From Gemmata obscuriglobus (GTDB taxonomy: Bacteria; Planctomycetota; Planctomycetia; Gemmatales; Gemmataceae), in assembly GCF_008065095.1 (NCBI RefSeq), contig NZ_CP042911.1, forward strand, positions 4,950,001-4,982,000: a DNA stretch of 32,000 nucleotides, given 5' to 3'. Both the position numbers and the translations under genes were made by a program. Of the stretch, positions 3,702 to 29,532 are shown piece by piece. Position 1 is the first letter of the stretch; each line of letters begins with the position of its first letter. The notes beneath the pieces were generated by a model, which was given only the letters and a program-made list of their open reading frames with translations, was not told the origin of the DNA and made no database searches.

Positions 3702-4060
3702 GGTCCGCGCCCGGGTGTCGGACTTTGCAATACGACGCTGACGGACCTTGGGCCGACACATTGGGGACATCGTACCGCCTCGCAGCCGCTCGCCAGGCGC
3801 ACCACAATGAAACCCGGCGAAGCGGTGTGGCCCGCCTGTACCGGGTCGCAAGACCGGTACCGCCCGAGGAACCGGCCACGGCTCGACTTCAACCTGGAAT
3901 GAAGAGGCCTTCCCCGGCCCGGACATCCGAGGCTTGAAATGCCAAGGCCGGTTCCGTGGAACGTCTCAACACGACCACCGCCAGCGTCGGCTGAGTCGAG
4001 GCGCGTGTAATGCGCGGCGCGTCGTCGTGTATCCATTTTGTGTCACGACTGGATACGAAC

Positions 4061-9611: not shown

Positions 9612-9954
9612 CCGACCGCTCCCCGCTAAAGGCCCCGGAACGCCCATAATCACAGCTCGTTGTGGATGTGGCGTGGGATACCCGCACCCGCCCGGGCCGT
9701 CAATCGAACTCCCTGATACCCAAGTGCGGCGACAGTGGCGAAACCCGCGCGTAACACGACCCCATGGCCTAACCGTCCTTGCGCCCGACGGCGCGCATGG
9801 GTGCCGTGCGGCACCGCGTGCCTCAAGCCCGCGTCATCTCGTGCCTAGCCGTCTGACCATAAAAGTGAGCACTTGTCCGAAGCGTACCGCTCCCGCAGAA
9901 TGCGAGAGCGTGGGCTCCGTTCGCCACAGAACCGTACCGCTCAGGGGGAAGAAG

Positions 9955-11720: not shown

Positions 11721-13961
11721 TCATCCCTCCGAAATCAGCACCAGCGCACTGAACGGCACCAACGTGTACGTGATCCCGTCGGCGACCGGCGGCCCGTTTT
11801 CCGTTTCAACGATGTCCTCGGGACCGGGCATTGCGGTGTCGACCAGGCGGCGCCAGCGCCGCCGCGTTGGGGCCGGGGGGATCCGGAACGCGAGCGGCTC
11901 GCTCCAGGCGTTCAGCGCGACGTAGAAGTCGTTGTCGATGTGGTAATCGCGGTCGTGTTCGCGGCCCGTGAACCGGCCGTCGAGCGCGAACGCGAGCGTG
12001 CGCGCCGTGCCGCCCCAGTCCGGCTGATACGGCTCGGTACCGTGCCAGTGGATGTCCGCCAGGAGCGGCGTACCGCCGGCCCCCGGGGTACGGGTGGCAC
12101 GTGCGAACTCACCCACCGCGCCCGGGGACAAGCCGGCGTCGCCCGGACGCACCGGGCCGCCCGGCGGGAACACCTCCGCCGCCGCGCTCGCGAGGCCCGG
12201 GGACTCGCCGCGCATGAGCTCGCCCACGAAGAACCGCCGCCGCCGCAACACGGGGTGCCGCTTGCGCAGGTGGATCAGCTCGCGCACGAACCGCAGGAAG
12301 TCCTTGTTGCCCTCCGCCAGGGTCCAGTCGACCCAGGAAATCTCGTTGTCCTGGCACCACGCGTTGTTGTTGCCCTGCTGGGTGCGCAGGAACTCGTCGC
12401 CCGCGAGCAGCATCGGCACCCCCTGGCTCAGCATCAGGGTCGTCATCATGTTCTTCGCCTGGCGCCGGCGCAGCGCGAGGACCTCGGGGTCGTCGGTCGG
12501 CCCCTCGGCGCCGCAGTTCCACGAGCTGTTGTGGCTCTCGCCGTCGCGGTTCCCCTCGCCGTTCGCGTGGTTGTGCTTCTCGTTGTAACTCACGAGGTCG
12601 TTCAGCGTGAACCCGTCGTGGGCGGTGACGAAGTTCACCGAGTGCCGCGGCAGCCGCCCGCTCCACTGGTACAGGTCCGCGCTCCCGCACACGCGCTCGG
12701 CCATCGCCGGCGCCAGCCCGTGGTCGCCTTTCCAGAACCGGCGCACGTCGTCCCGGTACTTGCCGTTCCACTCGCTCCACCGGCGCCCAAACGGGAACCG
12801 CCCCACCTGGTACAGCCCGCCGGCGTCCCACGGCTCGGCGATCAGCTTGGTGTCCGCGAGCACGCCGTCCTCCGTTATGCTCTCGATAACCGGCGGCTCC
12901 ACCATCACGTTCCCGCTACGGTCGCGCCCCAGGATGGAGGCCAGGTCGAAGCGGAACCCGTCCACGTGCATGTCCGCGGCCCAGTACCGCAGGCACGTCA
13001 TGATGAGGTCGCGCACCACCGGGTGGTTGCAGTTCACCGTGTTGCCGCACCCCGAGTAGTTCAGGTAGCGGCCCTGGGGGTCGAGCAGGTAGTACAGCTC
13101 GTTGTCGAGCCCGCGGAACGAGTAGGTGCGGCCCTGGTCGTTGCCCTCGCCGGTGTGGTTGAACACCACGTCCAGGATCACCTCAATGCCGGCCGCGTGC
13201 ATGGCCTTCACCATGTCGCGGAACTCGTGCGTCTGGCCGAAGCGGTTCGCGGTGGCCGCGAACGCGGCCTTCGGGGCGGCCAGCGCGACCGGGTTGTAGC
13301 CCCAGAAGTTGACCAACTTCTCGCCGGTGTCGGGGTTGAAGAACGGGCAGTCGCACTCGTCCCACTCGAACACGGGCATGAGCTCGACCGCGGTGACCCC
13401 GAGCCACTTCAGGTACGGGATCTTCTCCACCAGGCCCTTGAACGTGCCCGGGAACTGCACCCCGCTCGACGGGTGGCACGTGAACCCGCGCACGTGGACC
13501 TCGTAGATGATCGAGTCCTCGTACTCGATCAGCGGCGGCACGTCCTCCTCCCAGTTGTACCGCGTGCCGCGGCGGAACAGGCTCCGGCGCGAGGTGCGCT
13601 GCGGGTCCGTTTCGCACGTCCCGGCCCACACGGCGCCCTCGGACAGCATCGCGCAGGCCGGGTCGAGCAGGAGCCGGTTCGGGTCGAACCGGGTCCGCGG
13701 GCCGCGCGGGCCGTCCACCTTCCACCCGTAGCAGAACGCCTCCGGCAGGTCGTGGACGCGGATGTGCCAGTGATCCCCGGTGCGGTTCAGGCGGGCGTCC
13801 AATGGCAGCTCCGCCAGCGGCGTGCTGCCGCCCTCGGCCGGGAGGATCACCAGCGTCACCCGCTGCCCGTGCCGACACAGCAGGGCGAAGTTCGCACCGT
13901 CGGGGGTGAGCGTCGGACCGAGCGGCAGCGGGCGCCCGCGGCTGGTGCGGAACGGCATCAT
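11721..13961 (-). CDS. glgX: glycogen debranching enzyme GlgX (GH13)
   Basis: In frame with track ORF 11721..14255. Start placed at ATGATG (13961), MMPFRTSRGRPLPLGPTLTPDGANFAL. GH13 regions present: DVVFNHT, GFRFDLAS, AEPWD, FVTAHDGFTL. The upstream 98 codons are R-rich and run into a palindrome, so I treat them as non-coding. Confidence 0.9.
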   Translation of the reverse strand: MMPFRTSRGRPLPLGPTLTPDGANFALLCRHGQRVTLVILPAEGGSTPLAELPLDARLNRTGDHWHIRVHDLPEAFCYGWKVDGPRGPRTRFDPNRLLLDPACAMLSEGAVWAGTCETDPQRTSRRSLFRRGTRYNWEEDVPPLIEYEDSIIYEVHVRGFTCHPSSGVQFPGTFKGLVEKIPYLKWLGVTAVELMPVFEWDECDCPFFNPDTGEKLVNFWGYNPVALAAPKAAFAATANRFGQTHEFRDMVKAMHAAGIEVILDVVFNHTGEGNDQGRTYSFRGLDNELYYLLDPQGRYLNYSGCGNTVNCNHPVVRDLIMTCLRYWAADMHVDGFRFDLASILGRDRSGNVMVEPPVIESITEDGVLADTKLIAEPWDAGGLYQVGRFPFGRRWSEWNGKYRDDVRRFWKGDHGLAPAMAERVCGSADLYQWSGRLPRHSVNFVTAHDGFTLNDLVSYNEKHNHANGEGNRDGESHNSSWNCGAEGPTDDPEVLALRRRQAKNMMTTLMLSQGVPMLLAGDEFLRTQQGNNNAWCQDNEISWVDWTLAEGNKDFLRFVRELIHLRKRHPVLRRRRFFVGELMRGESPGLASAAAEVFPPGGPVRPGDAGLSPGAVGEFARATRTPGAGGTPLLADIHWHGTEPYQPDWGGTARTLAFALDGRFTGREHDRDYHIDNDFYVALNAWSEPLAFRIPPAPTRRRWRRLVDTAMPGPEDIVETENGPPVADGITYTLVPFSALVLISEG

Positions 13962-14114
13962 TCGGCGGACCTCGGACAGGGTGGGCGCGACGGGGTTACC
14001 GGTACGGCTCTCCGTGCGTGAGGCAAGAACCCGTAACCCTACAACAGCCCCCGCGCGAAAGCGAATCGCGCCGGCCTTCAAACCGAGCGCGGGGCCGTGC
14101 GGCCGTGAGTCCGA

Positions 14115-14174
14115 CCGCCCACGGCGGGCGTTTGGGAGCGGCCCGGGCCGCTCCCAAACGCCCGCCGTGGGCGG
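14115..14174. repeat. 60-bp perfect palindrome (30-bp arms, no spacer)
   Basis: CCGCCCACGGCGGGCGTTTGGGAGCGGCCC (14115-14144) is the exact reverse complement of 14145-14174. I checked it base by base; the first mismatch is 14114/14175. Each arm holds a nested hairpin CGCCC-ACGGC-GGGCG. Confidence 0.95.
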
Positions 14175-14519
14175 CCTGTTGCGTCGGCGCCGTACTCGTA
14201 GGGCGCGAGTTCTTTGAGACGTGGCGGCTGGTTTACAGACTGCGTTTTTCAACAACTCCGGGCGAACGCCACATACGTGCCGCCTCTCACGACTTCATCG
14301 GCGCGGTATCAACAGGCGGCACCCGAAGACCGGCATCGAAACGTTTGCGAGCACCCGGGGCCTACAGCAAGGCCCGAACCCGATTCGAACCGGATCTGGC
14401 GCGCACCGTCGCAGACCACGTGACCGCCGCGCTATTGGGAGCGGTCCCGGTGCGTTGTGTGTTCACCCGCGTGGGGCGGCGCTCCTCGCAGTTGCCACCG
14501 AGTGCCGAAGTTCGAGAGT

Positions 14520-14937: not shown

Positions 14938-15896
14938 ATGAACGCGCTGTCGATGGACTTGCGGAAGCGGGTGCTTGAGGACTGTGATGCGGGGATGGGA
15001 ACCACGGCCGTCGCGGAGAGGTACAAGGTGAGCGCGTCGTGGGTACGCCGTCTCAAGCAGCGGCGTCGGGAGGACGGGCGCATCGAGCCCGGGTCGTGCC
15101 GCAACAACCGGGTGCCCCAACTCGACACCCAGGCCGAGCGGATCCGCGAGGTCATCGCTGCAACGCCCGACATGACCCTCGAAGAGCTCAAGGTGAAGTT
15201 GGGCGTTGCGGTCGCCCTCGGGACCCTGTGGCGAGCCGTCGCCAAGCTCGGCCTGACGGTGAAAAAAAAGTCCAGCGGGCGTCCGAGCAGGAGCGCCCGG
15301 ACGTGAAGCAGAAGCGGGCCGATTGGAAGGCGACCCAACCGGCATTGGACCCGGACAAGGTGGTGTTCATCGACGAGACGTGGGCCCGCACGAACATGAC
15401 CCGGCGTTATGGCCGGAGCCCCAGAGGGGAGCGGCTGGTGTGCCCGGTTCCGCACGGGCACTGGAAAACGACGACGTTTGTGGCGGCCCTACGGGCCGAT
15501 GGGCTGACGGCCCCGATGGTGATCGATGGGGCCATGACCGGGGACCTGTTCGTGGCCTACGTGAAGCCGATCTTGGTGCCCACGCTCCGGCCCGGTGATG
15601 TGGTGGTGATGGACAACCTGATCTGCCACAAGCGGGTCGCGGCCAAGCAGGCGATCGAGGCCGCGGGCGGCCAGGTGCTGCTCCTACCGCCGTACAGCCC
15701 CGACCTGAACCCCATCGAGTTGGCGTTCTCCAAACTCAAGGGGTTGCTCCGAGCCGCCGGGAAGCGAACCATCGACGGCCTATGGGACTTCTTGGGAAAA
15801 GCGGTGGATGCGTTCACACCCGACGAGTGCCGACGGTACATCCGGCACTGCGGATACGGAATCAATACCGCTACAATGAACTTAAAAAGAGACTAG
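14938..15896 (+). CDS. IS630-family transposase, made from two frames joined by a -1 shift at an A8 run
   Basis: Frame 1 (14938..15306) is the HTH part: MNALSMDLRKRVLEDCDAGMGTTAVAERYKVSASWVRRLKQRRRE... The -1 frame holds the catalytic part: VQRASEQERPDVKQKRADW..., VFIDETW, VVMDNLICHK, PPYSPDLNPIELAFSKLK (the DDE triad). The TAG stop (15894-15896) uses the terminal TA plus one flanking base. Confidence 0.85.
15262..15269 (+). other. A8 slippery run; candidate programmed -1 frameshift site of the IS630 transposase
   Basis: GGTGAAAAAAAAGTCC. Reading one A twice joins ...LGLTVKKK to KVQRASEQERPDV... An A9 run would give a single ORF. Confidence 0.6.
15869..15893. repeat. IS630-family element, right terminal inverted repeat
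   Basis: CGCTACAATGAACTTAAAAAGAGAC. It also encodes the last residues of the transposase (TATMNLKRD). Confidence 0.85.
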
Positions 15897-16076: not shown

Positions 16077-17345
16077 TTACGCCGCGCGGCCCGCAGCAAC
16101 GTAGCTCACCCCCGGGTCATTAGCGAGACCCGCGGCGAGGAAGTGTGTCGGGTCGATGACCTTGGGCTTTTTCATTGCAGCGCGCACCTGCGCCGCGGTT
16201 AGGGCCCGGTACGCCGGCCACGGCGTCGCCAACACGCCGATGTCGGCGCCGCGAAGCGCGTCCTCCGCAGTCGAAGCCAGTTCAACGCCCGCGAGTTCCT
16301 CGGCGGGCTTTTTCACGGCGGGGTCATGCGCCTGCACCTTAACTCCCCGTGAGAGCAGCCACTGGCACAGTTCCACAGAACCGGAGCGCCGGAGCGTGTC
16401 CGTTCCGGGCTTGTAGGTCAACCCCAGAACGGCCACGGTTGCGCCGGCAGGAACGCCCGAGAGCTGATCGCGGAGCCAGTTCTTCTGGCACTCGTTGCTC
16501 GCCCGCACTCCGTTAAACAGGTGCGCCGGGCGGTCGTGCTGTTGCGCCAGTTCGAGCAGAAACCCGATGTCCCGGGCCAGCGTCCCGCCTGCGAAGGCCG
16601 CACCGGGGGAAAGGTACGCTTTCGGCCCGATCCGCTGCTCGGACTTCAGCCCGCGCTCGACCTCCTTAGCGTCGGCGCCGACCACCTCGCAGATGCGGGC
16701 CAGTTCGTTGATGAACGCGACCGAGGTGGCCAGAAAGGCGTTGACCGCGTGTTTGGTCATCTCGGCTGACGCCACCGACATCCACACCCGGTCGCCGCCG
16801 AACGGCTTCAGCAGCGTGGTGAACGCGGTGCGGTCCGCGTCTTCGCACCCGATCACGACGCGATCGGGCTTCCGGAAGCAGTCGAGTGCTTGCCCGAGGC
16901 GCAGGTTCTCCGGCGAGCACGCGACATGGACGCCGCGGTGCGCCCAATCCGCAGCGAGCTTCGCTCCGAACCCCACAGGAACCTGCGACGAGATCAGCAC
17001 CCGCACCCCGGCCCGGAGGTGCGGGGCGATGTCGTCGAGTCGGTCGCGGACCCACTGCACGTCTGCATTGTCGTTCGCGTCCACCGGGGTGTCGAAGCAC
17101 ACCCACACGACCTCCGCTTCGGGCACGGCGTCGGCGGCATCGGTCGTGAAACGGAGCCGGCCGGCGGCTCGTTGCTCGGCGACGAGGGCCGCAAGCCCCG
17201 GTTCGTCCACCGGCGGCCGGTCCGCTTTGAGTCCCGTAACGGTTGCCGGATCAGGATCGAGGCCGACGACCTCGTGCCCGCCCTCTGCGAGGCAAGCGGC
17301 CGTCACACTGCCGAGGTGCCACAAGCCGTACACGGTGACGCGCAT
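16077..17345 (-). CDS. UDP-glucose/GDP-mannose dehydrogenase-family protein, atypical: the catalytic Cys position is Thr
   Basis: In frame with track ORF 16077..17381. ATG 17345 follows GGAAGG. Family pattern present: MRVTVYGLWHLGSVTAACLAEGGHEVVGLD, SAEMTKHAVNAFLATSVAFINELA. The expected GGxCxPKD motif reads FAGGTLARD (16569-16595). Confidence 0.8.
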   Translation of the reverse strand: MRVTVYGLWHLGSVTAACLAEGGHEVVGLDPDPATVTGLKADRPPVDEPGLAALVAEQRAAGRLRFTTDAADAVPEAEVVWVCFDTPVDANDNADVQWVRDRLDDIAPHLRAGVRVLISSQVPVGFGAKLAADWAHRGVHVACSPENLRLGQALDCFRKPDRVVIGCEDADRTAFTTLLKPFGGDRVWMSVASAEMTKHAVNAFLATSVAFINELARICEVVGADAKEVERGLKSEQRIGPKAYLSPGAAFAGGTLARDIGFLLELAQQHDRPAHLFNGVRASNECQKNWLRDQLSGVPAGATVAVLGLTYKPGTDTLRRSGSVELCQWLLSRGVKVQAHDPAVKKPAEELAGVELASTAEDALRGADIGVLATPWPAYRALTAAQVRAAMKKPKVIDPTHFLAAGLANDPGVSYVAAGRAA

Positions 17346-17430
17346 GGTTGCCTTCCGGAAGCGCGGACCGCTGGCCCGCATCTGCGATCGTGTTCAGTTC
17401 GTTTCGGTATGGCGGAGCGGCCGCGTCCGG

Positions 17431-18393
17431 CTAAGCAGCTTTGCGCGACTCCAGCACCCACGGGTTCGCCCGCAGGTAATCGAGCGTGCGGCCGACCGCC
17501 TCGCGGATGCCCAGCTTCTGGCGCCAGCCGAACGATTTCAGTTTGGCGGTATCGAGGAAGATAAACGGGCTGTCGCCGATCCAGCCGCGTGCGCCACCGG
17601 TGTGGTTCACCTGGGGCCGCAGTCCCAACCGGTCGCAGATCCAACCGAGCGAGTCGTCGACCTGGCAGTACTCGTCCGCGCCCAAGTTCACCACGTTGAC
17701 CGGCTCGGTCGCCTTCTCAACCACTGTGAAAATGGCGTCGACGCAGTCCTGAACGTACAGGTAGCTCTTGCGCTGCTTCCCGTTCCCGAGCACCTCGATC
17801 TGGTTCGGGTTGGCGAGCAGTTTGGCGTAGAAGTCGAACACGTGACCGTGTGTATACCGCTCGCCCAGGATCGACACGAAGCGGAAGATGAACGCCTGAA
17901 ACCCGAACCCGGTCGCGTAAGCGGAGAGGAGCCCTTCGCCCGCGACCTTGCTGGCCGCGTACAGGCTGGTCTGGATCGGGAACGGCGCGTCCTCGGGGGT
18001 GGGGAACACGTTGGCTTCGCCGTACACCGACCCGGTGGACGAAAAGCCGATGCGTTTCACGCCGTTCAGGCGCATCGCTTCGAGCACGTTGAACGTCGCG
18101 ATGGTGTTCTGTTGCAGATCGCGGTCGGGGTGGTTGGTGCCGAACCGGACGTCCGCGTTGGCCGCCAGGTGGAACACGAAGTCGTGTCCGGCGACGGCGC
18201 GGGTCAGCACCGGTTTGTCGAGCAGATCGCCTTCCACGAGCGCGAAGCGGTCGCTCTTGAGCGCGTCCGCCAGGAACGGCCGCTGTCCGGTGCTGAAGTT
18301 GTCGAACGCGGTGACGTGGTGGCCGGCCGCGAGCAGCCGGTCCACCAAGTTGCTGCCGATAAACCCGGCCCCGCCGGTAACAAAATAGTTCAC
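17431..18393 (-). CDS. NAD-dependent nucleotide-sugar epimerase/dehydratase (extended SDR)
   Basis: In frame with track ORF 17431..18597. GTG 18393 follows GGAGGG and overlaps the upstream stop as GTGA. Motifs: VTGGAGFIGSNLVDRLL and the catalytic YAASK. Substrate and reaction type cannot be read from the sequence. Confidence 0.85.
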   Translation of the reverse strand: MNYFVTGGAGFIGSNLVDRLLAAGHHVTAFDNFSTGQRPFLADALKSDRFALVEGDLLDKPVLTRAVAGHDFVFHLAANADVRFGTNHPDRDLQQNTIATFNVLEAMRLNGVKRIGFSSTGSVYGEANVFPTPEDAPFPIQTSLYAASKVAGEGLLSAYATGFGFQAFIFRFVSILGERYTHGHVFDFYAKLLANPNQIEVLGNGKQRKSYLYVQDCVDAIFTVVEKATEPVNVVNLGADEYCQVDDSLGWICDRLGLRPQVNHTGGARGWIGDSPFIFLDTAKLKSFGWRQKLGIREAVGRTLDYLRANPWVLESRKAA

Positions 18394-19169
18394 GCAACCC
18401 TCCGAGACTCGGAAGAAGCTACCTGGCGTGCCGCCACCGGCCGCTCGCCACACAGCAACACGCTCGTGCCGAGCGGCAAGGGGACGCGCCGCTCCGCCGC
18501 GAGCAGCCCGTTCAGCACGCGCGACACCACCCCCGGCTTGCCACCCACCTGACCCACCGGGTACGGGCGCCGCAGCCACCGGCTGAACGCCAGACACACC
18601 GGGATCAGAGTGCCACCGAAGTACCGCACTTTTGTGACGTCACAGTGGTCCGAGACGAGGGCCCGCAGGCTGCGCTTGCTGTACCGGCGGTAGTGGCCGA
18701 GTTGCTCGTCGTGGAACCCGAACAGCCACTGCCCGGCCGGCACCGCCACGAGCACCAACCCGCCCGGGCGCACGAGCGCGGCCATCTTAGCGAACGCAGA
18801 CCGGTCGTCCTCAATGTGCTCGAGGACGTCCGTCGATACGGCGGCGTCGAAGTCCCCCGGCCCGGTGTAGTTCTCGATCGAACAGACGTGGTACTCGCTG
18901 TCCGGGAAGTTGGAGCCGGCGCGATCGCGGGCGAGGGCGATGTAGGTGGGATCGGGGTCGATCCCGACCACCTGGTGCCCCGCGGCGGCCAGCAGGCACG
19001 ACAGCTCGCCGCTCCCGCACCCGGCGTTGAGCACTCGCAGCCGCCCGCGCCCGCTCATCCAGCGGAGCAGCACGCGGTACTTGCTCTGCGCGTACACATC
19101 GCCGGACTTCGCCAAGAAGTCGTCGTACTGGGCTTGGTTGAACGTCGCTGCGGACAGATCGGCATTCAT
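18390..19169 (-). CDS. class I SAM-dependent methyltransferase
   Basis: Track ORF 18390..19169. ATG 19169 follows AGGAG. Motif I VLNAGCGSGELS; also VVGIDP, DVLEHIEDD, RPGGLVLV. Confidence 0.8.
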   Translation of the reverse strand: MNADLSAATFNQAQYDDFLAKSGDVYAQSKYRVLLRWMSGRGRLRVLNAGCGSGELSCLLAAAGHQVVGIDPDPTYIALARDRAGSNFPDSEYHVCSIENYTGPGDFDAAVSTDVLEHIEDDRSAFAKMAALVRPGGLVLVAVPAGQWLFGFHDEQLGHYRRYSKRSLRALVSDHCDVTKVRYFGGTLIPVCLAFSRWLRRPYPVGQVGGKPGVVSRVLNGLLAAERRVPLPLGTSVLLCGERPVAARQVASSESRRVA

Positions 19170-19175
19170 CGCGGA

Positions 19176-19922
19176 TCAGCTCCTGGCGGTTCGAGAGCCG
19201 GTCGGCACGCCCCGCGCGCCGAACCGGATGCGGAACAGGTCCTTCACGTTCTTCCAGTTTCCGGACACAAGTTGGAGTCGGGTGTCGCCGTCGTCCTGCC
19301 ACGTGACCCCGACCTCTTTCACCGCGTACCCGGCCCTCAGCGCCAGCGAAAGAACCTCGACATCGAACATGTACCCGTCAATGCGCTGCCGGGCGAACAG
19401 GTCGCGGGCCACCTCGCGGCGGAAGAACTTGAACCCGCACTGGGTGTCGGCGATCCCGTACAGCCCGACCAGTGGGCGCATCAGCAGGGCAAACCCTTTG
19501 GACCCGAGCCGGCGGTACCACTTCTGGCCCACCCGCACGTCCGCCCCGTTCACCGCCCGCGAGCCAATCACGATATCAAAACCCTGGTCGAACCAGGGCA
19601 GCACCTTCTCCAGTTCGGTGATCGCGACCTTGTAATCCGCGTCCAAGAACCCCACGATGTTGCCGGCCGCGACGAGCACCCCCTCGCGGACCCCTCGCCC
19701 CTTACCGCGGCGCTCCGGGGCGCCCATAACCCGCACCGGCAGTTCCGCGGCAAGGGCCGCCGCGGCCTCCCGGGTGCCGTCGGCGCCGTCGGCACTGACG
19801 ATCAGCTCGTACGTCACCCCGCGCGGTTCCAGGTAGTCGCGGATCGCGCGCAAGGTGCACTGGATCGTGGCCACTTCATTGAACGCTGGCACCACCAAAC
19901 TGAGCTGCGGGGACGCGGACAT
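19176..19922 (-). CDS. GT2 glycosyltransferase, polyprenyl/dolichyl-phosphate sugar synthase type (ALG5/ArnC/GtrB-like)
   Basis: In frame with track ORF 19176..19943, whose first codon is GTG. ATG 19922 preferred; both are possible. Motifs: LSLVVPAFNE, FLDADY (DxD), DTQCGFKFF, YMFDVEVL. Confidence 0.85.
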   Translation of the reverse strand: MSASPQLSLVVPAFNEVATIQCTLRAIRDYLEPRGVTYELIVSADGADGTREAAAALAAELPVRVMGAPERRGKGRGVREGVLVAAGNIVGFLDADYKVAITELEKVLPWFDQGFDIVIGSRAVNGADVRVGQKWYRRLGSKGFALLMRPLVGLYGIADTQCGFKFFRREVARDLFARQRIDGYMFDVEVLSLALRAGYAVKEVGVTWQDDGDTRLQLVSGNWKNVKDLFRIRFGARGVPTGSRTARS

Positions 19923-19954
19923 ATAGGGCCCTGTTTCTGGCACGGGTATTAAAA

Positions 19955-22900
19955 TTAGGGTGTTTGCCGTGCCGGTTCGAATCCGACGAACCGAACCAGC
20001 GCGCCGACGGCCCTACCGTCCGGCGGGGGGAGCACTTGCGTGTTCGTAAATCGGCATTCCAGCCGCCGGCCTTGAGCCGGGCCGCCGGGCGCCCGCAACT
20101 CGAAGGCCCCCGGTCCCACCGAGCGGCGCGCGACCTCGACGCCGTCCGCGAGCAGCGCCACCTCGGTCCGGTATCCGGATCGCCCCGCGAATGCCGGGAT
20201 CTCGCCGCGAACGACCGCCTGGTGACCTGCCGCCGCGGGGTGGCACGTGACCGCGAACGTCGCCGCGCACCACCCGTCCGAGTACAACCCGGTGGCCGCA
20301 AGCCCCGCCCGTGCCAGGTCGCCGGGGAACGTGCCCACCGCCTCCGGCGGCCGGCACTGCGGCTCGAAGCCGACGTACCGCAGGTGAGCCGACAACCGCC
20401 GCCCGTCCGGCGCGGGCAACGTCTGGTCACCCGAGAATCGGACCGTGATCCACCGCGGCCCGCTCCCGTCCCCGCCCGGGGCGCGAAGTTCAAACTCGCC
20501 CGGCCCGAGATCAACGGTCACACCCGGGCGCCCGTCCACAAGCACGACCGCCGTCGTGCGGAACCCGTCCGCACCGGGCACCCCCGGTACCAGCCCGCGG
20601 ACCACGGCCTCCTGCCCGCGCTCCGGCTGCGTGAGCCGCACCTTGAACTCGCGCCCGACCCAGCCTTCTTCAGAAAGCCCCGAGAACTCAAGGTGCGGGT
20701 GCGTCAGGTCCTCCGGGAATCGGTGCAGCGCGGGCGGCGGCGCGAACGCGGCGTATTCGGCTTCGGTCAGCACCGAGGCGTCGCGCAAGTACCCGGTCAG
20801 CCGGCGCCGGTCCCGCGACAGCTCTGCCCCCCACAGCCGCTCCGCAGCCGCCAGCTGATCGCGGGAACGCAGCGGCTGCCCGAACTCGAGCGCCAGGTAA
20901 CGGCCGGGGCCGGCCGGCTGCGGCGCAACCGGCGGAGACACCAACCGGCTGGCCCCGCACCCGACCGCACCGAGCGTCACCCGCCGGTCACCGACCACGC
21001 GCACCGGGGCGGTGCCGCGCGCCTGCGGGTCAGCCTGGAACGACGCCGTGTGACTCACGAGAACCCGCACTTCGGGAGACGGGTTGAGAACGTCGAGCAG
21101 TACCGCGCGGCCGGTTCCGGCCGCGCTACGCCCTGCGAACGCCGGGTCCGCCTGGAGTTGGTACAGCGCGATCGCATCCGGCTCGGTCATCCCGAGAAAG
21201 TGGTGCCGGGCCCCAGACGCATCGCACAGCACCGCAAAGTTGTGGAGTTCGGACAGCGGGGCGCACACCACCACCGGCCCGCCCTCCGGATGCCGCACCC
21301 GGTTGAGGGGGGCCACCGCCCCGCCGCTCGCAACCACCAGTGTTCGCTCCGGCTCGTTGCCCCGATGCGGAGGCCGCCCCAGCGGCGTGTACAGGACCGC
21401 ACCGGTGTCCGGGTCCCGAACCGCGTACACGTTTGCCGCCTCGGCCGCGTACGCCGCTCGCAGCGCGCGAAATGGTTCGAGCAGGTCGCGGCGCGCCCGC
21501 ATCAGCGGGGCACGCTCCCCGCCCGGCAGCGCGTTTCTCACGTGCTCGTCGAACGTACTGACACCCACCTCACCGCCGAGCGTGCCGCGCACCTCGATCG
21601 CTACCAGTTTTCGTAAGGTCGTGTTGTCGCACGCGATCAGTACACGGTCCACCCCGCCGGACGAAAGCCGGCGGGCGTATTCGGCTCGGAACTCGGACAG
21701 GCCGTGCCGCTCGGAGACGGTCAGCAATTCCACGCGCCCCTCGAGCCCGCGGCTCTGGTCCACGTACCAGAACTGCACCCGCACGTTCAGCCCGACGAGC
21801 GCGACGGCCGCCGCCACGGCCGCGCGGGCGGCCCACCGCGTGCGGTGCCGCGCCACCACCCAGCCGGCCACCACGGACCACAGGAATGGTTGCACGAACA
21901 TGGCCAACTTGAACAGCCCGAACCCGCTGCCCCGAACGAACAGCACCGCCCCCAACGCGGCCGACACCGCGAGCACCGCGGCCGGAGCGAACCCGCGCCA
22001 CAGCCCGCGCGCCGCGACGGTTACGACGGCCGCGGACAGAGCCAGCGCCAGCAGGATCGCGGCGCTCTGCGCGCCCTCCGGTTCGGGGCCGGCAAGCGGC
22101 AACAGCCCCCACACCAGTGCCGGCCCGCGGGGCGTGAGGTACAGCGGGAACATTTCCTTGAGCCAATCAGCCGAGCGGGCGGCCGCGCCGGTTTGAATCA
22201 TCATGAACGACACGCACCCGACCAGGTACGCGGGCATCAACGCCGTCATGATCACCACTGCCCCGGTGACCTGAGCCAAGTGCCGCCCGTCCAGCCGCCG
22301 CCGTACCAGGTCGCGTAGCCCGAGAGCCACACACGTCCCGACCAGCAACGGGATCACCTCGGGGTAGAACACGAGCAACCCGGTGAAAACCACACCGAGG
22401 GCGCCGGCCCGGCGGGCCAGCGCTCCAGCGGACAGCCTCCGCACGCGAACCGTAACGAGCGCCACCGCCACGCACAGCAGCCCCAACCCCGCGGCCTGGG
22501 CGATGAGTTGCTGCACCACCCCGTAGGTGGTAGCCGCCGAGACCGCCAGCAGCCCGGCGGTAAGGGCACCCGCCCGCCGCCCGGCGGATGCCGTCGCGAG
22601 CCCGCCCGCCGCCGCCACCAGCGCGAGGTTCAGGGCCGCGATCACCGGCATGAACACCTCTACCACCGGCCGCCCGGCCCACACGGACGAGATCGCCAGC
22701 AGCACCTCAGAGCCCGGGCGGGTTTCCTGAATTATGTACGAAAACCAAAAAGCCTGTGTCTGATCAACGCAGCCCAGCACATCGCTTACTTCCGGCGCGT
22801 GCGCGTACCCGTGGTCCCGATACCCCGTGGCCATCAGGCAGTAGTTGGCCATGTCGTCGTTGCCGTTGGCCACCCAGTCGAACCCATACTCGAACAGCGG

Positions 22901-23230
22901 CCACGCAGTCAGCCCGAAGGCCGCAACAAGAGCCGTCGCAGGCAGGGCACACCGGCGGGCCACGAGCCGCGCGGCCGCCGCCCGCGGCCGGGTGAGCCAC
23001 AGGACCGCCGACGCGCCGGCGAGCAGGCACGCCCCCACCGGCACTGCCGAGTGCCGCACCGGTACCCCCCACCTCACGAGAACGTACGTTGGGATGGTGA
23101 GCGTCGCGAACCCAACCGCCGGTGCCAAAAGCACCACCGCCGGCCCCCAGCGGAACCGGCCGAGCCGCAGCACCGCCAAGCCGATGATGCCCCAAGAACC
23201 GAACAGAGCCCAGGACAGCACGGCCGCCAC
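19955..23230 (-). CDS. 1091-aa polytopic membrane protein with a large C-terminal soluble region; putative lipid-linked-sugar transferase (function inferred from context only)
   Basis: Track ORF 19955..23230. GTG 23230 follows GGGAGGTG. About a dozen hydrophobic segments in the first ~500 aa, by eye. The C-terminal ~590 aa end in two tandem ~110-aa modules. No known catalytic motif recognised. Confidence 0.6.
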   Translation of the reverse strand: MAAVLSWALFGSWGIIGLAVLRLGRFRWGPAVVLLAPAVGFATLTIPTYVLVRWGVPVRHSAVPVGACLLAGASAVLWLTRPRAAAARLVARRCALPATALVAAFGLTAWPLFEYGFDWVANGNDDMANYCLMATGYRDHGYAHAPEVSDVLGCVDQTQAFWFSYIIQETRPGSEVLLAISSVWAGRPVVEVFMPVIAALNLALVAAAGGLATASAGRRAGALTAGLLAVSAATTYGVVQQLIAQAAGLGLLCVAVALVTVRVRRLSAGALARRAGALGVVFTGLLVFYPEVIPLLVGTCVALGLRDLVRRRLDGRHLAQVTGAVVIMTALMPAYLVGCVSFMMIQTGAAARSADWLKEMFPLYLTPRGPALVWGLLPLAGPEPEGAQSAAILLALALSAAVVTVAARGLWRGFAPAAVLAVSAALGAVLFVRGSGFGLFKLAMFVQPFLWSVVAGWVVARHRTRWAARAAVAAAVALVGLNVRVQFWYVDQSRGLEGRVELLTVSERHGLSEFRAEYARRLSSGGVDRVLIACDNTTLRKLVAIEVRGTLGGEVGVSTFDEHVRNALPGGERAPLMRARRDLLEPFRALRAAYAAEAANVYAVRDPDTGAVLYTPLGRPPHRGNEPERTLVVASGGAVAPLNRVRHPEGGPVVVCAPLSELHNFAVLCDASGARHHFLGMTEPDAIALYQLQADPAFAGRSAAGTGRAVLLDVLNPSPEVRVLVSHTASFQADPQARGTAPVRVVGDRRVTLGAVGCGASRLVSPPVAPQPAGPGRYLALEFGQPLRSRDQLAAAERLWGAELSRDRRRLTGYLRDASVLTEAEYAAFAPPPALHRFPEDLTHPHLEFSGLSEEGWVGREFKVRLTQPERGQEAVVRGLVPGVPGADGFRTTAVVLVDGRPGVTVDLGPGEFELRAPGGDGSGPRWITVRFSGDQTLPAPDGRRLSAHLRYVGFEPQCRPPEAVGTFPGDLARAGLAATGLYSDGWCAATFAVTCHPAAAGHQAVVRGEIPAFAGRSGYRTEVALLADGVEVARRSVGPGAFELRAPGGPAQGRRLECRFTNTQVLPPPDGRAVGALVRFVGFEPARQTP

Positions 23231-23318
23231 GCGTCACCTCCCGTTCCGCTCGGGTGGACCGAATCGGTGGGGAGTGATAGCGAGTCTGCGGCACGTACAC
23301 AAGAGCAACCGCCCCGCG

Positions 23319-23351
23319 TGACGCGGCCTATTTCATGACGGGCCTATTTCA
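23319..23351. repeat. back-to-back tandem direct repeat TGACG(C)GGCCTATTTCA x2 in the divergent intergenic region
   Basis: Read directly: 23319-23335 and 23336-23351. They are identical except for one extra C in the first copy. Confidence 0.8.
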
Positions 23352-23541
23352 GGACCGATCCTTGCTCCACGCCACGTGCCTTGTTGAATCCCGAAATGAA
23401 CATAAGTCGTTATTCTTCAATGCTCCAGCCCACGCCGTATCGAACATGGAACGGCGCGGCCAAGCATCCCATGCCACCTTGCTCTGGAGTGATAGCCGTG
23501 GTATGTGCGCGCTAGGTCCCGCGCACCGCCCGGAAGGTCCA

Positions 23542-25767
23542 ATGAACACTTACGGCTGGCTGCTACTCGGTCAAACCGTGCTCGCACTGCTCGCGCTTGG
23601 GATGGGCGGCGGATGGGCGCTGTGTGCGTTCCGCCGGAGCGAGCGCCCGTATCTGTGGCTGGCAGCCCCGCTCGCCGGAGTGCTCACGCTCGGCGGCGCG
23701 CTTGCCCTGCTGTATTTTTTCACCGGCCTTTCGCTCCGTCAGTCCCTTTGGATCGGGTGGGGGCTGAACGTGCTCGGGACCGTGGTAACCGTCGCTCGGA
23801 CCCGAACGGTCCCTCGCGCGCGGTATCTTGCTGCCGGTGGCGTGGTCGCTCTGGCCGTGTCCTACTGGGCAACGGTGAGTTGCAACAAGACGGCCATCGA
23901 CGCGCGGGAGCCGACGCTCATCACGGTCGACGGGAGCGACATGTTCGGTTACGCGATCGTAGGGGACTGGGTGCGTGCGCACCCGGCCGCAGACGGGCCG
24001 CAGCCGACCGAGGTGCTGAACGGTCTCACGTACGGGAACTTGCGGCGCGAGTGCAGCCGCCCGATCGCGTTCCTGCTGCTGGCCGCCGGGGCCGAGACGC
24101 GCGGCACCACAACTCTCTTTTCGTACGATTGGGTGTCCGGGGTTCTGCTGGCGGCGGGGTTGGCCGGCTTCGCCGGCGCATCCGCGGGCAACGTACCGAT
24201 ACTCGTACTCGTGGCAGCCGGCGGGGCCGCCAGCAGTTGGCTTACCGACAACCGGACCGGGTACCTCGGAAAGGCAATCGCGTACCCGGCCGGGGTGCTG
24301 CTCGTGTCACTCATGCTTACGGCCCTCACGGAGCCATCCCGGGCGCGGTGGGCGGTGACCATTCTGTTCGGGACAGTGCTTGCGTGGTGCCTCAGCCCTA
24401 TGTTCCCACCGGTGCTGCTGGCGATCGCTGCGGGCGGGTACTTGGTGACGCTCGTGGCGCTGTTCATTCGCGGGCGGTGGGACGAACACTCTAATGGATT
24501 CGGAACCGCGGTCATTCGCCCGGCGGTAGCGGCCCTAGTTCTGTCAGCGGCTTCGTCTGTACCGATGTTCGTGACCTACAGGTTGATGTTCGGCTCGTTC
24601 CCGCCGCCGCCGCCACCGACAGACTGGAGTTGGGTGCTTCCGGTGTCGCTCGACTTGGAACTGCCGACGCTCAAGGCAGTAACCGTTATATCATGGGTGT
24701 GGCTGATGCGGGCGGCCGCGGCGGCGATCGCGGTAGCCCTTGCCGCCGCCCTATGGCGGGGCCAGCGGGCGGCCTCTGCCCTTTTGGCATGTGGCCTGTT
24801 TGTACCGTTCGCGTGGGCTCTGGACGAGTTCCGGCTATACACTTTCCACGGACTCGTCTTCCCTTTAACACTCGCCGGGGCAGCAGCGCTCGCCGACCCG
24901 CGTTCCAAGGTGGCCGCCGTCCCGTCGGTTGAAGGGCCTTCAACCGGCGGGGCGGGAGTGGTCCGCATCGCACTGGTCGCGCTGCTGGTGTGCGGTACGG
25001 TCGGGTTGCGGGTTCCTCAGTTCCGGGCGGCAGCCTCCCGATACGTCTACGCGCCGCCGAGCCACCGAGTTGTGCATCGCCAGAGTGAAGCCGTGGCCCT
25101 CCGGGCGGCGCTCGAACACGCACCGCTCGACGTGGCCCTCGGACACTACGCCGACAACCACTTCGTGTGGGCCGAATTGGCCACCCGAGAGGTGCCGGTG
25201 CGATTCCGATCGCCGGGCTGGAATGTTTCTGTTGGAGCGTACGCCGGGCCGAGTCCGAACTACGATTTGTTCGCCCCCAAAGCGTCGTTCGCCCTACTCG
25301 AGCGAGGCGCATGGTCCGCCCCAGGTACCGAGCGCTGGGTCGGCAAACGATTGAAACTGGTTCAAGACCAGAAGGCGATCGCGGTAGTCGGCGTGTACGC
25401 GGGGCAGGCCAACTCTTGGGACGGTGAGTGGCGACCGGGTGTGTGGATCGGAAACGCGCCGACCACCCTGCTGATACACAACGGTGCAGACCATGTTTGT
25501 GCGGTCCGACTCACGGCCGACACGGCGGCCGGCCCGGCGCATCCCGATCCCAATCGCCGCACTTTGCGCTACCGGCTCCGAGACCGTGCAAGCACACTGT
25601 CTCTGCCCAAAACGAACCGAGCCGTTCTCTCGTTACTCCTGGAACCCGGTATGAACCGGATCGAGTTGAGCGTCGAGGAGCAAGCCGAACCGCTGGCTCC
25701 AGCCGGTCATCCCGTACCCCTGCTCGAATTCCGGAACTGGTGTATCGAAACCGCAGGTGGGCCGTAA
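23542..25767 (+). CDS. 741-aa polytopic membrane protein with a C-terminal soluble region; same architecture as the divergent 1091-aa protein, function unknown
   Basis: In frame with track ORF 23335..25767. ATG 23542 follows GGAAGG (MNTYGWLLLGQTVLALLALG...). About a dozen hydrophobic segments, a PPPPPP tract, then ~260 aa of soluble, beta-rich sequence. Confidence 0.6.
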   Translation: MNTYGWLLLGQTVLALLALGMGGGWALCAFRRSERPYLWLAAPLAGVLTLGGALALLYFFTGLSLRQSLWIGWGLNVLGTVVTVARTRTVPRARYLAAGGVVALAVSYWATVSCNKTAIDAREPTLITVDGSDMFGYAIVGDWVRAHPAADGPQPTEVLNGLTYGNLRRECSRPIAFLLLAAGAETRGTTTLFSYDWVSGVLLAAGLAGFAGASAGNVPILVLVAAGGAASSWLTDNRTGYLGKAIAYPAGVLLVSLMLTALTEPSRARWAVTILFGTVLAWCLSPMFPPVLLAIAAGGYLVTLVALFIRGRWDEHSNGFGTAVIRPAVAALVLSAASSVPMFVTYRLMFGSFPPPPPPTDWSWVLPVSLDLELPTLKAVTVISWVWLMRAAAAAIAVALAAALWRGQRAASALLACGLFVPFAWALDEFRLYTFHGLVFPLTLAGAAALADPRSKVAAVPSVEGPSTGGAGVVRIALVALLVCGTVGLRVPQFRAAASRYVYAPPSHRVVHRQSEAVALRAALEHAPLDVALGHYADNHFVWAELATREVPVRFRSPGWNVSVGAYAGPSPNYDLFAPKASFALLERGAWSAPGTERWVGKRLKLVQDQKAIAVVGVYAGQANSWDGEWRPGVWIGNAPTTLLIHNGADHVCAVRLTADTAAGPAHPDPNRRTLRYRLRDRASTLSLPKTNRAVLSLLLEPGMNRIELSVEEQAEPLAPAGHPVPLLEFRNWCIETAGGP

Positions 25768-28095: not shown

Positions 28096-29385
28096 TCAAT
28101 ACAACAATATCCACGGCTTTCGGTACTCCTTCGTCAGCAGCGCAGCCGCTTCCTTGTCGCCGACGATGGTTTCCGACTTCGGATCCCAGGTGATTTTACG
28201 TCCGGTGCGGATCGCGATGTTCCCAAGGTGACATACGGTCGCGCTACGGTGCCCGATCTCCACATCACAAATCGGCAGCTTTCGGGTCTTGATGCACTCC
28301 AGCCAATCTGCGTGGTGCCCCTTCGACACGTACAATTTCGCCTCGCCCGTCGGCAGTTTGTAAGGGTCGGCCACCTTTTCACCGTTAAGCATCGCGGCGA
28401 TAGCCCCACGCTTCACGGAAATGGTGCCCTTTTCGCCGACGAACGTCACCCCACCGGGGTTGCCACCGGCGCCCAGTGTGCAGTGAACTTTCACCCCGTT
28501 CGCGTAAGTAAAGACCTGGTTTGCGGATTCAGGCGTCTCGAACCACTTATCCTTGTTGAACGTTGCCATGCCCTCGATCGTTGTCGGGCCGCTGTCGTCC
28601 AGCCCGAGAGCCCACTGTGCGATGTCGAGATCATGCGCGCCAAAATTGGTCTGTTGACCGCCCGAGTAGTCCCAGAAGAACCGGAACAGGTAGTGAACGC
28701 GGTTGGCGTTGAACGGGCGCTCCGGTGCCGGGCCGAGCCAGCGATCGTAATCGAGCGTCGCCGGCGGGCTTCCGTCCGGAACCGCCTTCTTCGCCCGGCT
28801 CACCCAATTCGGTCCCGGCAAACCGACTTTCACCTCCTGCAGTTTCCCCAGCGCCCCGTTGCGGACCAGTTCACATGCGTGCCGAAACTCCTTCCCGGAT
28901 CGCTGTTGACTGCCTGTTTGCACAATCCGTTTATTGTCGCGTGCGGCCTTCACCATCGCGCGGCCCTCCGTCACCACCAGTGTGAGGGGTTTCTCGCAAT
29001 AAACATCCTTACCAGCCTTACAAGCATCGACCGTCACGAGCGCGTGCCAGTGGTCTGGGGTACTACAAAGCACCGCGTCAATATCCTTCTTGTCCAGCAG
29101 TTTGCGGTAATCGCTCGCGGTTGCGACCTTGGTCCCCTTTTCCATCTCCCGAGCGGCCGCTTCAAGGTGAACGGAGTCCGTATCGCACACAGCGACCACG
29201 TTCTTGCGAACAGCTTTCATGTTGGCCAACCCTTGTCCCCCCACACCTACACACGCAACGCGAACGGTTTCGCTCGGTTTGTCCTGGGCCAAAAGCGCCG
29301 CGCGATAAGTCAGCGCTGGAAGCGCGAGGAAGGTACTGCCTGTGAGGGACGCGCGGAGCACAGCGCGGCGATGAAGTTGCGTCAT
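28096..29385 (-). CDS. Gfo/Idh/MocA-family oxidoreductase with a twin-arginine (Tat) signal
   Basis: Track ORF 28096..29385. N-terminus is MTQLHRRAVLRASLTGSTFLALPAL. Rossmann motif VACVGVGGQGLANM. EKPLT motif present (YCEKPLTL). Confidence 0.85.
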   Translation of the reverse strand: MTQLHRRAVLRASLTGSTFLALPALTYRAALLAQDKPSETVRVACVGVGGQGLANMKAVRKNVVAVCDTDSVHLEAAAREMEKGTKVATASDYRKLLDKKDIDAVLCSTPDHWHALVTVDACKAGKDVYCEKPLTLVVTEGRAMVKAARDNKRIVQTGSQQRSGKEFRHACELVRNGALGKLQEVKVGLPGPNWVSRAKKAVPDGSPPATLDYDRWLGPAPERPFNANRVHYLFRFFWDYSGGQQTNFGAHDLDIAQWALGLDDSGPTTIEGMATFNKDKWFETPESANQVFTYANGVKVHCTLGAGGNPGGVTFVGEKGTISVKRGAIAAMLNGEKVADPYKLPTGEAKLYVSKGHHADWLECIKTRKLPICDVEIGHRSATVCHLGNIAIRTGRKITWDPKSETIVGDKEAAALLTKEYRKPWILLY

Positions 29386-29532
29386 TTGCGGCTTTCAGAA
29401 GATGGAGATTGGAAGACAAGTCTTCGGACAGTTTAACCCCGCGTGGTGGAACGACGCCACTGCGAAGAACCGTCTTGCACCGAGCGGGCGCGCGGTTATA
29501 CCGGTGCCCCGTTTCATTCGGGGACCGAGCCC

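Follow-up and report, generated by a model that had tools for sequence, protein, structure and literature searches.

The window analysed here, 32,000 nucleotides of the Gemmata obscuriglobus chromosome (contig NZ_CP042911.1, positions 4,950,001 to 4,982,000), contains at 16077-25767 a cluster of six intact open reading frames (ORFs). Its probable product is a Gtr/Arn/Emb-type module for glycosylation outside the cytoplasm, combining a lipid-linked sugar donor with two GT-C enzymes of uncharacterised families; the sugar, too, is probably an uncharacterised one. The two putative transferases, called GTC1 and GTC2, are large polytopic membrane proteins. They are accompanied by a GT2 glycosyltransferase, an S-adenosylmethionine (SAM)-dependent methyltransferase, a short-chain dehydrogenase/reductase (SDR) predicted to act on a nucleoside diphosphate (NDP)-sugar, and a nucleotide-sugar dehydrogenase homologue that lacks the catalytic Cys. 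A preliminary description of this DNA had reported five packed minus-strand genes and a divergent gene for a 741-aa protein. ORF calls on the window recover all six with the spacings it gave, and both the 6-nt gap between the GT2 and methyltransferase genes and the GTGA start/stop overlap at 18393-18390 can be read directly in the sequence. The same six genes are called in three public G. obscuriglobus assemblies, and the 1091-aa product, GTC1, is 100% identical to GobsT_42080. Public gene calls place the GT2 start at 19922 (248 aa). One public assembly places that of the dehydrogenase homologue at 17345 (422 aa), probably its true start; residue 1 of the Frigoriglobus orthologue coincides with it. 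The cluster is laid out as follows:

19955..23230, minus strand: GTC1, 1091-aa polytopic membrane protein; GT-C fold predicted by AlphaFold2 (AF2) and Foldseek, without Pfam, NCBIfam or PDB sequence match
23542..25767, plus strand: GTC2, 741-aa polytopic membrane protein, divergent; GT-C fold predicted by AF2 and Foldseek, without credible Pfam match
23231..23541, no strand: 311-nt intergenic region between the divergent GTC1 and GTC2 genes, read from the sequence
19176..19943, minus strand: GT2, short and soluble (248-255 aa), start probably ATG 19922; PF00535
18390..19169, minus strand: class I SAM-dependent methyltransferase, soluble; Methyltransf_11/25/23
17431..18393, minus strand: extended-SDR NDP-sugar epimerase (predicted), 320 aa; PF01370
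16077..17381, minus strand: UDP-glucose/GDP-mannose dehydrogenase-family homologue without catalytic Cys, start probably ATG 17345; TIGR03026

The intergenic region presumably holds both promoters. A scan for the sigma-70 consensus found none in 23231-23541, a consensus that says little for a planctomycete, and promoter and terminator counts were not above those of shuffled sequence and are uninformative on the operon. Co-transcription of the five minus-strand genes is a prediction.

The preliminary description could place neither membrane protein by motif, and profile searches agree. GTC1 has no match in Pfam, NCBIfam or PDB sequences, whether searched as a single sequence or as a family profile. 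GTC2 has no credible Pfam match and none in NCBIfam, and its family profile finds no PDB sequence; a match to NfeD_membrane (22 bits, under cutoff) was taken as noise. Structural models are more telling. AF2 models built from the family alignments reach a pLDDT of 92.9 and a pTM of 0.88 for GTC1, and 87.4 and 0.90 for GTC2. Against the PDB, Foldseek matches GTC1 to AftD (8e-6), to AglB and AftA, and to STT3 of yeast and of human (1e-4 to 1e-3, with a target TM-score of about 0.44). GTC2 is matched to EmbB (3e-4) and also to AftD, STT3 and PglB. Because every membrane-protein match listed is a GT-C enzyme, both proteins are assigned from their models as GT-C-fold glycosyltransferases with periplasmic domains resembling carbohydrate-binding modules (CBMs). 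Transporter, Wzy and ligase identities were set aside, as none appears among the Foldseek matches listed.

In its model, GTC1 consists of a GT-C module (residues ~1-492), a mixed alpha/beta periplasmic domain, and two tandem CBM-like beta-sandwiches at ~845-958 and ~975-1087. These repeats, of about 110 aa each, are 45% identical (E 2e-30), and many GTC1 relatives carry a single copy. Foldseek pairs the GTC1 C-terminus with CBM22 and GH2-type sugar-binding beta-sandwiches, and the single beta-sandwich at the C-terminus of GTC2 with CBM6/CBM35.

Conserved residues point to a shared active site. Across 53 homologues of GTC1, D126 (in N-D-D-M-A-N-Y), Y130, R171, E291, K441 and Q447 are invariant. 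The D126 loop follows the fourth transmembrane (TM) helix and is nearly without Lys and Arg, and the preceding loops alternate between Arg-rich and Arg-free; the positive-inside rule, applied to this Lys/Arg distribution, places the loop in the periplasm. GT-C enzymes carry their catalytic acid on the periplasmic side. An hhalign comparison of the two families (probability 94%, E 1e-7, 479 columns) superposes D126 on D133 of GTC2 (in G-S-D-M-F-G-Y), which is invariant in its own family alignment, and R171 on R173. On this profile alignment GTC1 and GTC2 appear to be remote paralogues, each with an acidic residue in the first long extracytoplasmic loop for which a catalytic role is predicted. 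Neither protein contains a WWD or WWDxG motif or has an STT3 Pfam match.

The GTC1 family is large, with hundreds of full-length homologues. An exhaustive profile search of 1.84 billion representative proteins returned 2026 clusters at E<=1e-3 and 968 at E<=1e-30, giving an estimated family size of about 2000 clusters at 50% identity. A scan using one genome per species found relatives in 209 species, from which 80 loci were kept. These loci span Planctomycetota, Verrucomicrobiota, Acidobacteriota, Cyanobacteria, Chloroflexota, Alpha-, Beta- and Gammaproteobacteria, Eremiobacterota/Vulcanimicrobiota and Actinomycetota. The GTC2 family is far smaller and mainly confined to Gemmataceae. Among 42 members of the GTC1 family (GTC1 and 41 others), no PMT_2/ArnT model (PF02366, PF13231) matched at E<=1, nor did STT3, YfhO or similar Pfam models. 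Two of the 42 weakly matched DUF6541 (PF20176; best 28.3 bits vs a cutoff of 29, E 7e-7), a model that does not match GTC1 of G. obscuriglobus itself, and a look through the literature on DUF6541 and on heptose and GT-C systems found nothing relevant.

Database names among the homologues call for some care. UniRef naming of the Rgt type occurs among homologues of both GTC1 and GTC2. The labels "RgtA/B/C/D-like" on three of them (P0017, P0027, P0122) could not be reproduced, with no Pfam match at E<=0.1, and serve as a lead only. The NCBI record of another homologue (P0007) is evidently misnamed "Di- and tricarboxylate transporter ... Yersinia mollaretii".

Gene neighbourhoods provide the second main line of evidence. 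In 83 GTC1 loci the surrounding ORFs were clustered and cluster representatives re-scored by tblastn. A polyprenyl-phosphate-type GT2 occurs in 52 of the 83, and in 40, from about ten phyla, no more than 600 nt separate it from the GTC1 homologue; because this GT2 adjoins GTC1 so often, the pairing of a lipid-linked donor with a GT-C enzyme gains support. An SDR orthologue (>=55% identity) is found in 41/83 loci across phyla. The Cys-less dehydrogenase homologue is restricted to 18 loci and is accompanied by the SDR in all 18. A class I methyltransferase, orthologous or other, is present in 30/83, and 26/83 carry at least two of the genes for GHMP kinase, NTP-transferase, HAD-IIIA, SIS and transaldolase proteins. 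Outside Gemmataceae, 41/83 loci carry, immediately upstream of the GTC1 homologue, a fusion in which a GT9 domain (the heptosyltransferase family) is followed by a long coiled coil and then by a GT2 domain, for example at L072:58-2655 (+). This fusion may build the acceptor glycan, and it agrees with the heptose theme developed below. ABC-2 (Wzm-like) permeases occur in 10/83 loci, DegT aminotransferases in a few, and GtrA (PF04138) flippase genes in two to four of the related loci. The preliminary description had coupled its proposal to conservation of this neighbourhood. GT2 and SDR are indeed co-conserved with GTC1 across phyla, and the dehydrogenase homologue in a subset of loci; the computational results that could have spoken against that proposal, a transporter-like fold or a lack of co-conservation, did not emerge.

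Individual relatives show how the cluster is arranged. Frigoriglobus tundricola keeps the full six-gene set at 54-90% identity. GTC2, there adjacent to GTC1, shares one strand with a 633-aa protein, and GTC1, GT2, methyltransferase, SDR and dehydrogenase homologue occupy the other. After the dehydrogenase homologue follow adh_short, GFO/IDH/MocA, GHMP kinase, NTP-transferase, SIS, HAD and transaldolase genes. In a Tepidisphaeraceae genome the stretch GTC1-GT2-methyltransferase is retained, and a JGI metagenomic contig carries GTC2, GTC1, GT2, three methyltransferases and the SDR in this order on a single strand.

Some proteins in or near these loci stand outside the core set. The Frigoriglobus 633-aa protein (L001:7732-9633, -) lies between GTC2 and GTC1 and has no Pfam match. 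It has no counterpart in the G. obscuriglobus window by tblastn. The system may have had it as a third component, since lost from G. obscuriglobus. In nine Opitutaceae loci (as at L063:20189-23005, +), a polytopic protein of about 938 aa without Pfam match lies about 3 kb downstream of the GTC1 homologue and may be a further unclassified membrane glycosyltransferase. In two genomes (L084:6447-7646, L085:4098-5294) an MBOAT gene lies upstream of a GTC2 homologue where GTC1 is absent, which suggests that GTC2 may there belong to a locus for glycan O-acylation and glycosylation.

The GT2 matches PF00535 (E 7e-23), and the motifs noted for it previously are in place: VVPAFNE at 17, DAD at residues 101-103, DTQCGFK at 166 and YMFDVEV at 191. 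Its nearest PDB sequences are the P. furiosus Dol-P-Man synthase (6e-16), GtrB (4e-8) and ArnC (5e-7). The best NCBIfam models are a Dol-P-hexose transferase, AglJ and PpgS, all matched far under their cutoffs, and no TM segment is predicted. The enzyme is a predicted polyprenyl-phosphate sugar synthase of the short DPM1/ALG5/PpgS type. It lies directly 3' of GTC1 in 13/14 Gemmataceae loci; in other phyla a GtrB/ArnC/PgfS-like GT2 with C-terminal TM helices, nearest to PgfS (234 bits, under cutoff), holds the same position directly downstream. The earlier idea of a polyprenyl-phosphate-type GT2 serving large extracytoplasmic membrane transferases is thus borne out by both fold and gene context.

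The soluble enzymes reveal where this cluster parts from Arn-like chemistry. The SDR (PF01370, E 9e-50; GGAGFIG at 7, SSTGSVYG at 118, YAASK at 145) is nearest in the PDB to 3EHE (1e-79) and 8RDG (2e-75), then to 3ICP and 3AW9. Entries 3EHE, 8RDG and 3AW9 belong to a promiscuous archaeal group within the GDP-sugar 4-epimerases (PMC12171764). Motif inspection found neither the Asp-Glu of 4,6-dehydratases nor the Thr-Ser-Glu of UDP-glucuronic acid (UDP-GlcA) decarboxylases. Of the previous label "epimerase/dehydratase", then, the epimerase half stands and the dehydratase half does not. By sequence, the protein is an epimerase-type SDR that falls in the GDP-sugar 4-epimerase-like subgroup, with GDP preference and action at C4 as predictions.

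The dehydrogenase homologue has the complete three-domain architecture of its family (PF03721, PF00984, PF03720) and scores 303 bits against TIGR03026 (cutoff 190), with the TuaD and AglM equivalog models far under their cutoffs; its earlier placement among nucleotide-sugar dehydrogenases is correct at family level. In pairwise alignment, however, its AFAGGTLARD lies opposite GYGGSCFPKD of the UDP-glucose dehydrogenases (UGDHs) 4A7P and 3GG2, so that the catalytic Cys is replaced by Leu. The motif GGTL(A/G)RD is kept in 17/17 sequences, comprising the window protein and 16 orthologues beside GTC1 homologues in six phyla, drawn from Gemmataceae, Tepidisphaerales, Bryobacterales, Opitutaceae, Alphaproteobacteria, Chloroflexota and Cyanobacteria. 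In UGDH, this Cys forms the thiohemiacetal and thioester required for the second oxidation. Its absence therefore means that no uronic acid is expected by the canonical UGDH mechanism, and a single two-electron oxidation of an NDP-sugar is the simplest prediction. The Arn-like sequence proposed before, in which the dehydrogenase makes UDP-GlcA for the SDR, is not supported, given this Cys-to-Leu exchange and the affinity of the SDR to GDP-sugar 4-epimerases.

The methyltransferase (Methyltransf_11/25/23, E 1e-16 to 1e-18; GCGSG at residue 47) is a predicted accessory enzyme tailoring the sugar or the lipid-linked sugar. Some Gemmataceae loci lack it, and one contig has three in a row.

Gene content and spacing, the modelled GT-C fold, the paralogy of the two membrane proteins, their conserved residues, the loss of the dehydrogenase Cys, the epimerase-type SDR and the co-location of these genes across phyla can be combined into a predicted mechanism. 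In the cytoplasm, an NDP-sugar would be tailored by the 4-epimerase-type SDR and the Cys-less UGDH-family dehydrogenase; the analogous genes of relatives make GDP the probable nucleotide. The dehydrogenase would remove two electrons in a single oxidation, giving a keto or aldehyde sugar and no uronic acid, and the SAM methyltransferase could optionally methylate the sugar. On the inner side of the cytoplasmic membrane, the GT2 would then load the sugar onto polyprenyl phosphate, after which a protein encoded outside the cluster would flip the lipid-linked sugar. In the periplasm, GTC1 and GTC2 would pass it to a glycan that their CBM-like C-terminal domains bind, using D126 and D133 in the loop after TM4, probably at two different acceptor sites or in two different linkages.

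The nature of the sugar can be approached through the relatives. Their activation genes resemble the route to GDP-D-glycero-alpha-D-manno-heptose (GmhA/HddA/GmhB/HddC) but score far under the NCBIfam equivalog cutoffs, and their transaldolase is above the cutoff of TIGR02134. In lincosamide biosynthesis, a GDP-octose is made by the LmbR transaldolase, LmbN isomerase, LmbP kinase, LmbK phosphatase and LmbO guanylyltransferase, and later modified by the LmbM epimerase, LmbL dehydrogenase and LmbZ/CcbZ oxidoreductase (PMC4351081 Table 2; PMC12945683). The pathway also includes LmbS/CcbS (PMC4351081, PMC12945683). Compared by listed activities, the relatives' gene set pairs one-for-one with Lmb R, N, P, K, O, M, L and Z. 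We take LmbL to be of the UGDH family, LmbM to be an SDR and LmbZ to belong to GFO/IDH/MocA. The octose-type set is complete in Frigoriglobus, whereas the window itself holds only the SDR and UGDH-family genes and lacks the first five, and an aminotransferase occurs in few loci. The product of the cluster would also go to polyprenyl phosphate and a surface glycan, unlike the Lmb product, which goes into an antibiotic.

The affinity of the SDR to GDP-sugar epimerases fits a heptose or an octose route alike. By analogy, the family's usual donor may derive from GDP-heptose or GDP-octose, which we offer as a tentative idea with somewhat less than even chances. A bolder scenario, which we rate as unlikely but worth stating, is that GTC1 founds a widespread, unannotated GT-C family using a polyprenyl-phosphate-linked modified heptose or 8-deoxy-octose-type sugar, often methylated. 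Its source would be a counterpart, in primary metabolism, of the lincosamide GDP-octose pathway, running from transaldolase, SIS, GHMP kinase, HAD and guanylyltransferase to an LmbM-like epimerase, a Cys-less LmbL-like dehydrogenase and a GFO oxidoreductase. We know of no earlier lipid-phosphate-linked heptose or octose donor.

As for the acceptor, a polysaccharide is suggested by the CBM-like domains and, in other phyla, by the GT9-GT2 fusion upstream and the presence of ABC-2 permeases; two other destinations can be weighed against it. In an Arn/Rgt-type pathway, UDP-GlcA would be converted by the SDR to UDP-galacturonic acid, a 4-keto-pentose or xylose, passed by the GT2 to undecaprenyl phosphate and added by the GT-C enzymes to lipid A or the core of lipopolysaccharide (LPS), in the manner of ArnT and RgtA-D. 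The gene families would suit this route (UGDH family, SDR, ArnC-like GT2, large GT-C), some homologues of both membrane proteins carry the irreproducible Rgt-like UniRef labels, and G. obscuriglobus has LPS. We nevertheless consider the pathway very improbable: the Cys for the second oxidation is missing from 17/17 sequences of the dehydrogenase homologue; the SDR is nearest GDP-sugar 4-epimerases, not UDP-GlcA epimerases or ArnA, and has no decarboxylase or dehydratase signature; and no PMT_2/ArnT Pfam match turned up in the 42 family members or the UniRef-labelled homologues. The GTC1 family is also present in genomes of Chloroflexia and Solirubrobacteraceae, groups that to our knowledge have no LPS; therefore lipid A or LPS core is unlikely as a general acceptor, and the CBM-like domains again suggest a polymer.

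The second alternative, in which GTC1 and GTC2 act as STT3/PglB-, PMT- or Pgf-like transferases on secreted or envelope proteins, also strikes us as quite improbable. STT3, AglB and PglB are among the best fold matches, and the TM-anchored GT2 of other phyla is nearest PgfS of the streptococcal Pgf protein-glycosylation system. Neither a WWDYG-type motif nor a PMT or STT3 Pfam match is present, however, the C-terminal domains resemble carbohydrate-binding modules, and the GT9-GT2 fusion and ABC-2 permeases upstream or nearby (41 and 10 of the 83 loci) set a polysaccharide-pathway context.

A third alternative concerns G. obscuriglobus alone and turns on two insertion sequence (IS) elements that border the cluster:

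14938..15896, plus strand: IS630-family transposase, with a helix-turn-helix (HTH) part at 14938-15306 and a DDE_3 part at 15303-15896; PF13358
26105..27502, minus strand: ISL3-family transposase; PF01610

The IS630 transposase (PF13358 DDE_3, E 2e-29; public calls HTH_Tnp_IS630 and DDE_3) lies directly after the dehydrogenase homologue and marks the cluster's 3' boundary, where relatives carry the sugar-activation genes, which supply the sugar-1-phosphate and the NDP-sugar. The ISL3 transposase (PF01610, E 1e-14) lies beside GTC2, in the same position in all G. obscuriglobus assemblies. The separate HTH and DDE_3 ORFs of the IS630 element suggest a frameshifted or two-ORF transposase, and short-read (Logan) contigs with the cluster stop near IS630 or ISL3, which fits multi-copy IS elements.

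Several observations weigh against a working glycosylation module of the kind proposed. Of the genes beyond the dehydrogenase homologue, six from Frigoriglobus (those for adh_short, GFO, GHMP kinase, NTP_transferase, SIS and HAD proteins) served as tblastn queries against the window, and none is there; the transaldolase, cut at the locus end, was excluded as a query. A search for the GHMP kinase with the Frigoriglobus query and ten cluster listings found no orthologue labelled G. obscuriglobus. Its matches came from other Gemmata and Frigoriglobus (84-93% identical), and the search was non-exhaustive, with one 46-member cluster partly listed. The pathway in G. obscuriglobus may thus be incomplete or rewired. 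There is also no flippase candidate of the GtrA, SMR/ArnEF or MATE type in or beside the cluster at 16077-25767. The lipid-phosphate acceptor of the GT2 is drawn from relatives and context because the protein falls far under every NCBIfam equivalog cutoff. For GTC1 and GTC2 the fold matches are of only moderate strength (Foldseek E 1e-4 to 1e-5, with a target TM-score of about 0.4), Pfam and PDB searches with both families give no sequence-level link to characterised GT-C families, and linkage of GTC2 to GTC1 was seen in only 3/5 GTC2 contexts examined.

The missing genes and the flanking IS elements could mean that the G. obscuriglobus cluster is an IS-truncated remnant, its genes intact but its NDP-sugar supply gone, that yields no product. 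This matches the absence from the window of six genes whose like occur in many other loci, and the lack of a kinase orthologue in the limited search. On the other side, all six ORFs are full-length, 54-90% identical to those of Frigoriglobus and retain the invariant residues, the layout is identical in independent assemblies, and the supply genes could sit elsewhere in the 9-Mb genome, which the kinase search did not exhaust. We regard a dead remnant as improbable. By its gene content, the G. obscuriglobus module looks like a truncated version of the cluster; supply genes may lie elsewhere in the genome, another NDP-sugar may be used, or the pathway may be inactive in this species.

The favoured reading, a lipid-linked donor serving two GT-C transferases, places the cluster near a well-known type of system. 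Three-component periplasmic glycosylation (reviewed in PMC11127046) includes GtrA/GtrB/Gtr* of Shigella and Salmonella, GmlABC of Klebsiella, GacI/GacL and CsbB/YfhO of Gram-positives, and the ORF12-15 pentofuranose system of Citrobacter youngae, whose transferase (GT136) has a C-terminal CBM, as GTC1 and GTC2 do. In these systems, as in the cluster, a GT2-type polyprenyl-phosphate sugar synthase sits beside a polytopic GT-C, predicting modification of a glycan outside the cytoplasm after its polymerisation, and GtrA itself appears in a few related loci. Several features set the cluster apart: it has no flippase gene and two GT-C paralogues, its GT2 is short and soluble (DPM1/ALG5/PpgS-like) while GtrB has TM helices, and it includes its own tailoring genes for SDR, Cys-less dehydrogenase homologue and methyltransferase. 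Structurally, the mycobacterial AftD, EmbA/B/C and AftA match GTC1 and GTC2 best, with a many-TM GT-C core followed by large periplasmic domains, CBM-like beta-sandwiches among them. The structural alignments reach only 10-13% identity, however, with TM-scores of 0.2-0.44 and no sequence-level match, and mycobacterial decaprenyl-phosphate arabinose is made from phosphoribosyl pyrophosphate (PRPP), not by a GT2 from an NDP-sugar.

The Arn and Rgt pathways likewise combine a dehydrogenase-family enzyme acting on an NDP-sugar, an SDR, an ArnC/RgtE-like GT2 and a GT-C transferase. Unlike in Arn, the dehydrogenase homologue without its Cys should be unable to perform a four-electron oxidation, and the GTC1 family extends into phyla without LPS. 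The cluster also lacks a decarboxylase, aminotransferase, formyltransferase, deformylase, ArnE/F and a PMT_2/ArnT signature; the preliminary description had already pointed out that 16077-25767 holds no aminotransferase, formyltransferase or small GtrA/ArnEF-type gene. Its suggestion of an undescribed system holds for the two GT-C families and fails for the type of system, which is already known.

As far as we know, three things have not been described: two GT-C families without Pfam model, sequence-level solved relative or literature found, a conserved Cys-less branch of the UGDH family, and the proposed link between a paired GT-C and polyprenyl-phosphate GT2 and a GDP-sugar pathway of the heptose or octose type. 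No new principle is involved unless the higher-carbon lipid-linked donor holds true.

Other genes in the window complete the picture of the region. A HlyD-family membrane-fusion protein (4010-5464, +) and an OEP/TolC-like outer-membrane factor (8097-9653, -) are parts of an efflux or type I secretion system unrelated to the cluster. A GlgX-type isoamylase is encoded at 11721-14255 (-), a DUF6655 protein at 29443-30351 (+) and an RsmE-type RNA methyltransferase at 31202-31915 (+). At 28096-29385 (-) lies a GFO/IDH/MocA oxidoreductase that is 39% identical to one flanking the Frigoriglobus cluster and may be a synteny anchor.

Planctomycete envelopes are chemically little characterised, and these genes had no assigned function. 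The analysis draws attention to two GT-C families overlooked by current profile libraries, one of them large and spread over many phyla, and defines a candidate active-site residue and conserved partners, which should be of use for bacterial glycobiology and for annotation. Automatic annotation of the Cys-less branch as "UDP-glucose 6-dehydrogenase", for instance, would suggest, wrongly, that uronic acids are made. Should a GDP-derived heptose or octose indeed travel via polyprenyl phosphate, it would constitute a new donor class for glycosylation in the periplasm. The sugar chemistry of lincosamides would then be connected with the everyday synthesis of surface glycans, and the full octose scenario would offer an evolutionary source for the sugar chemistry of an antibiotic pathway.

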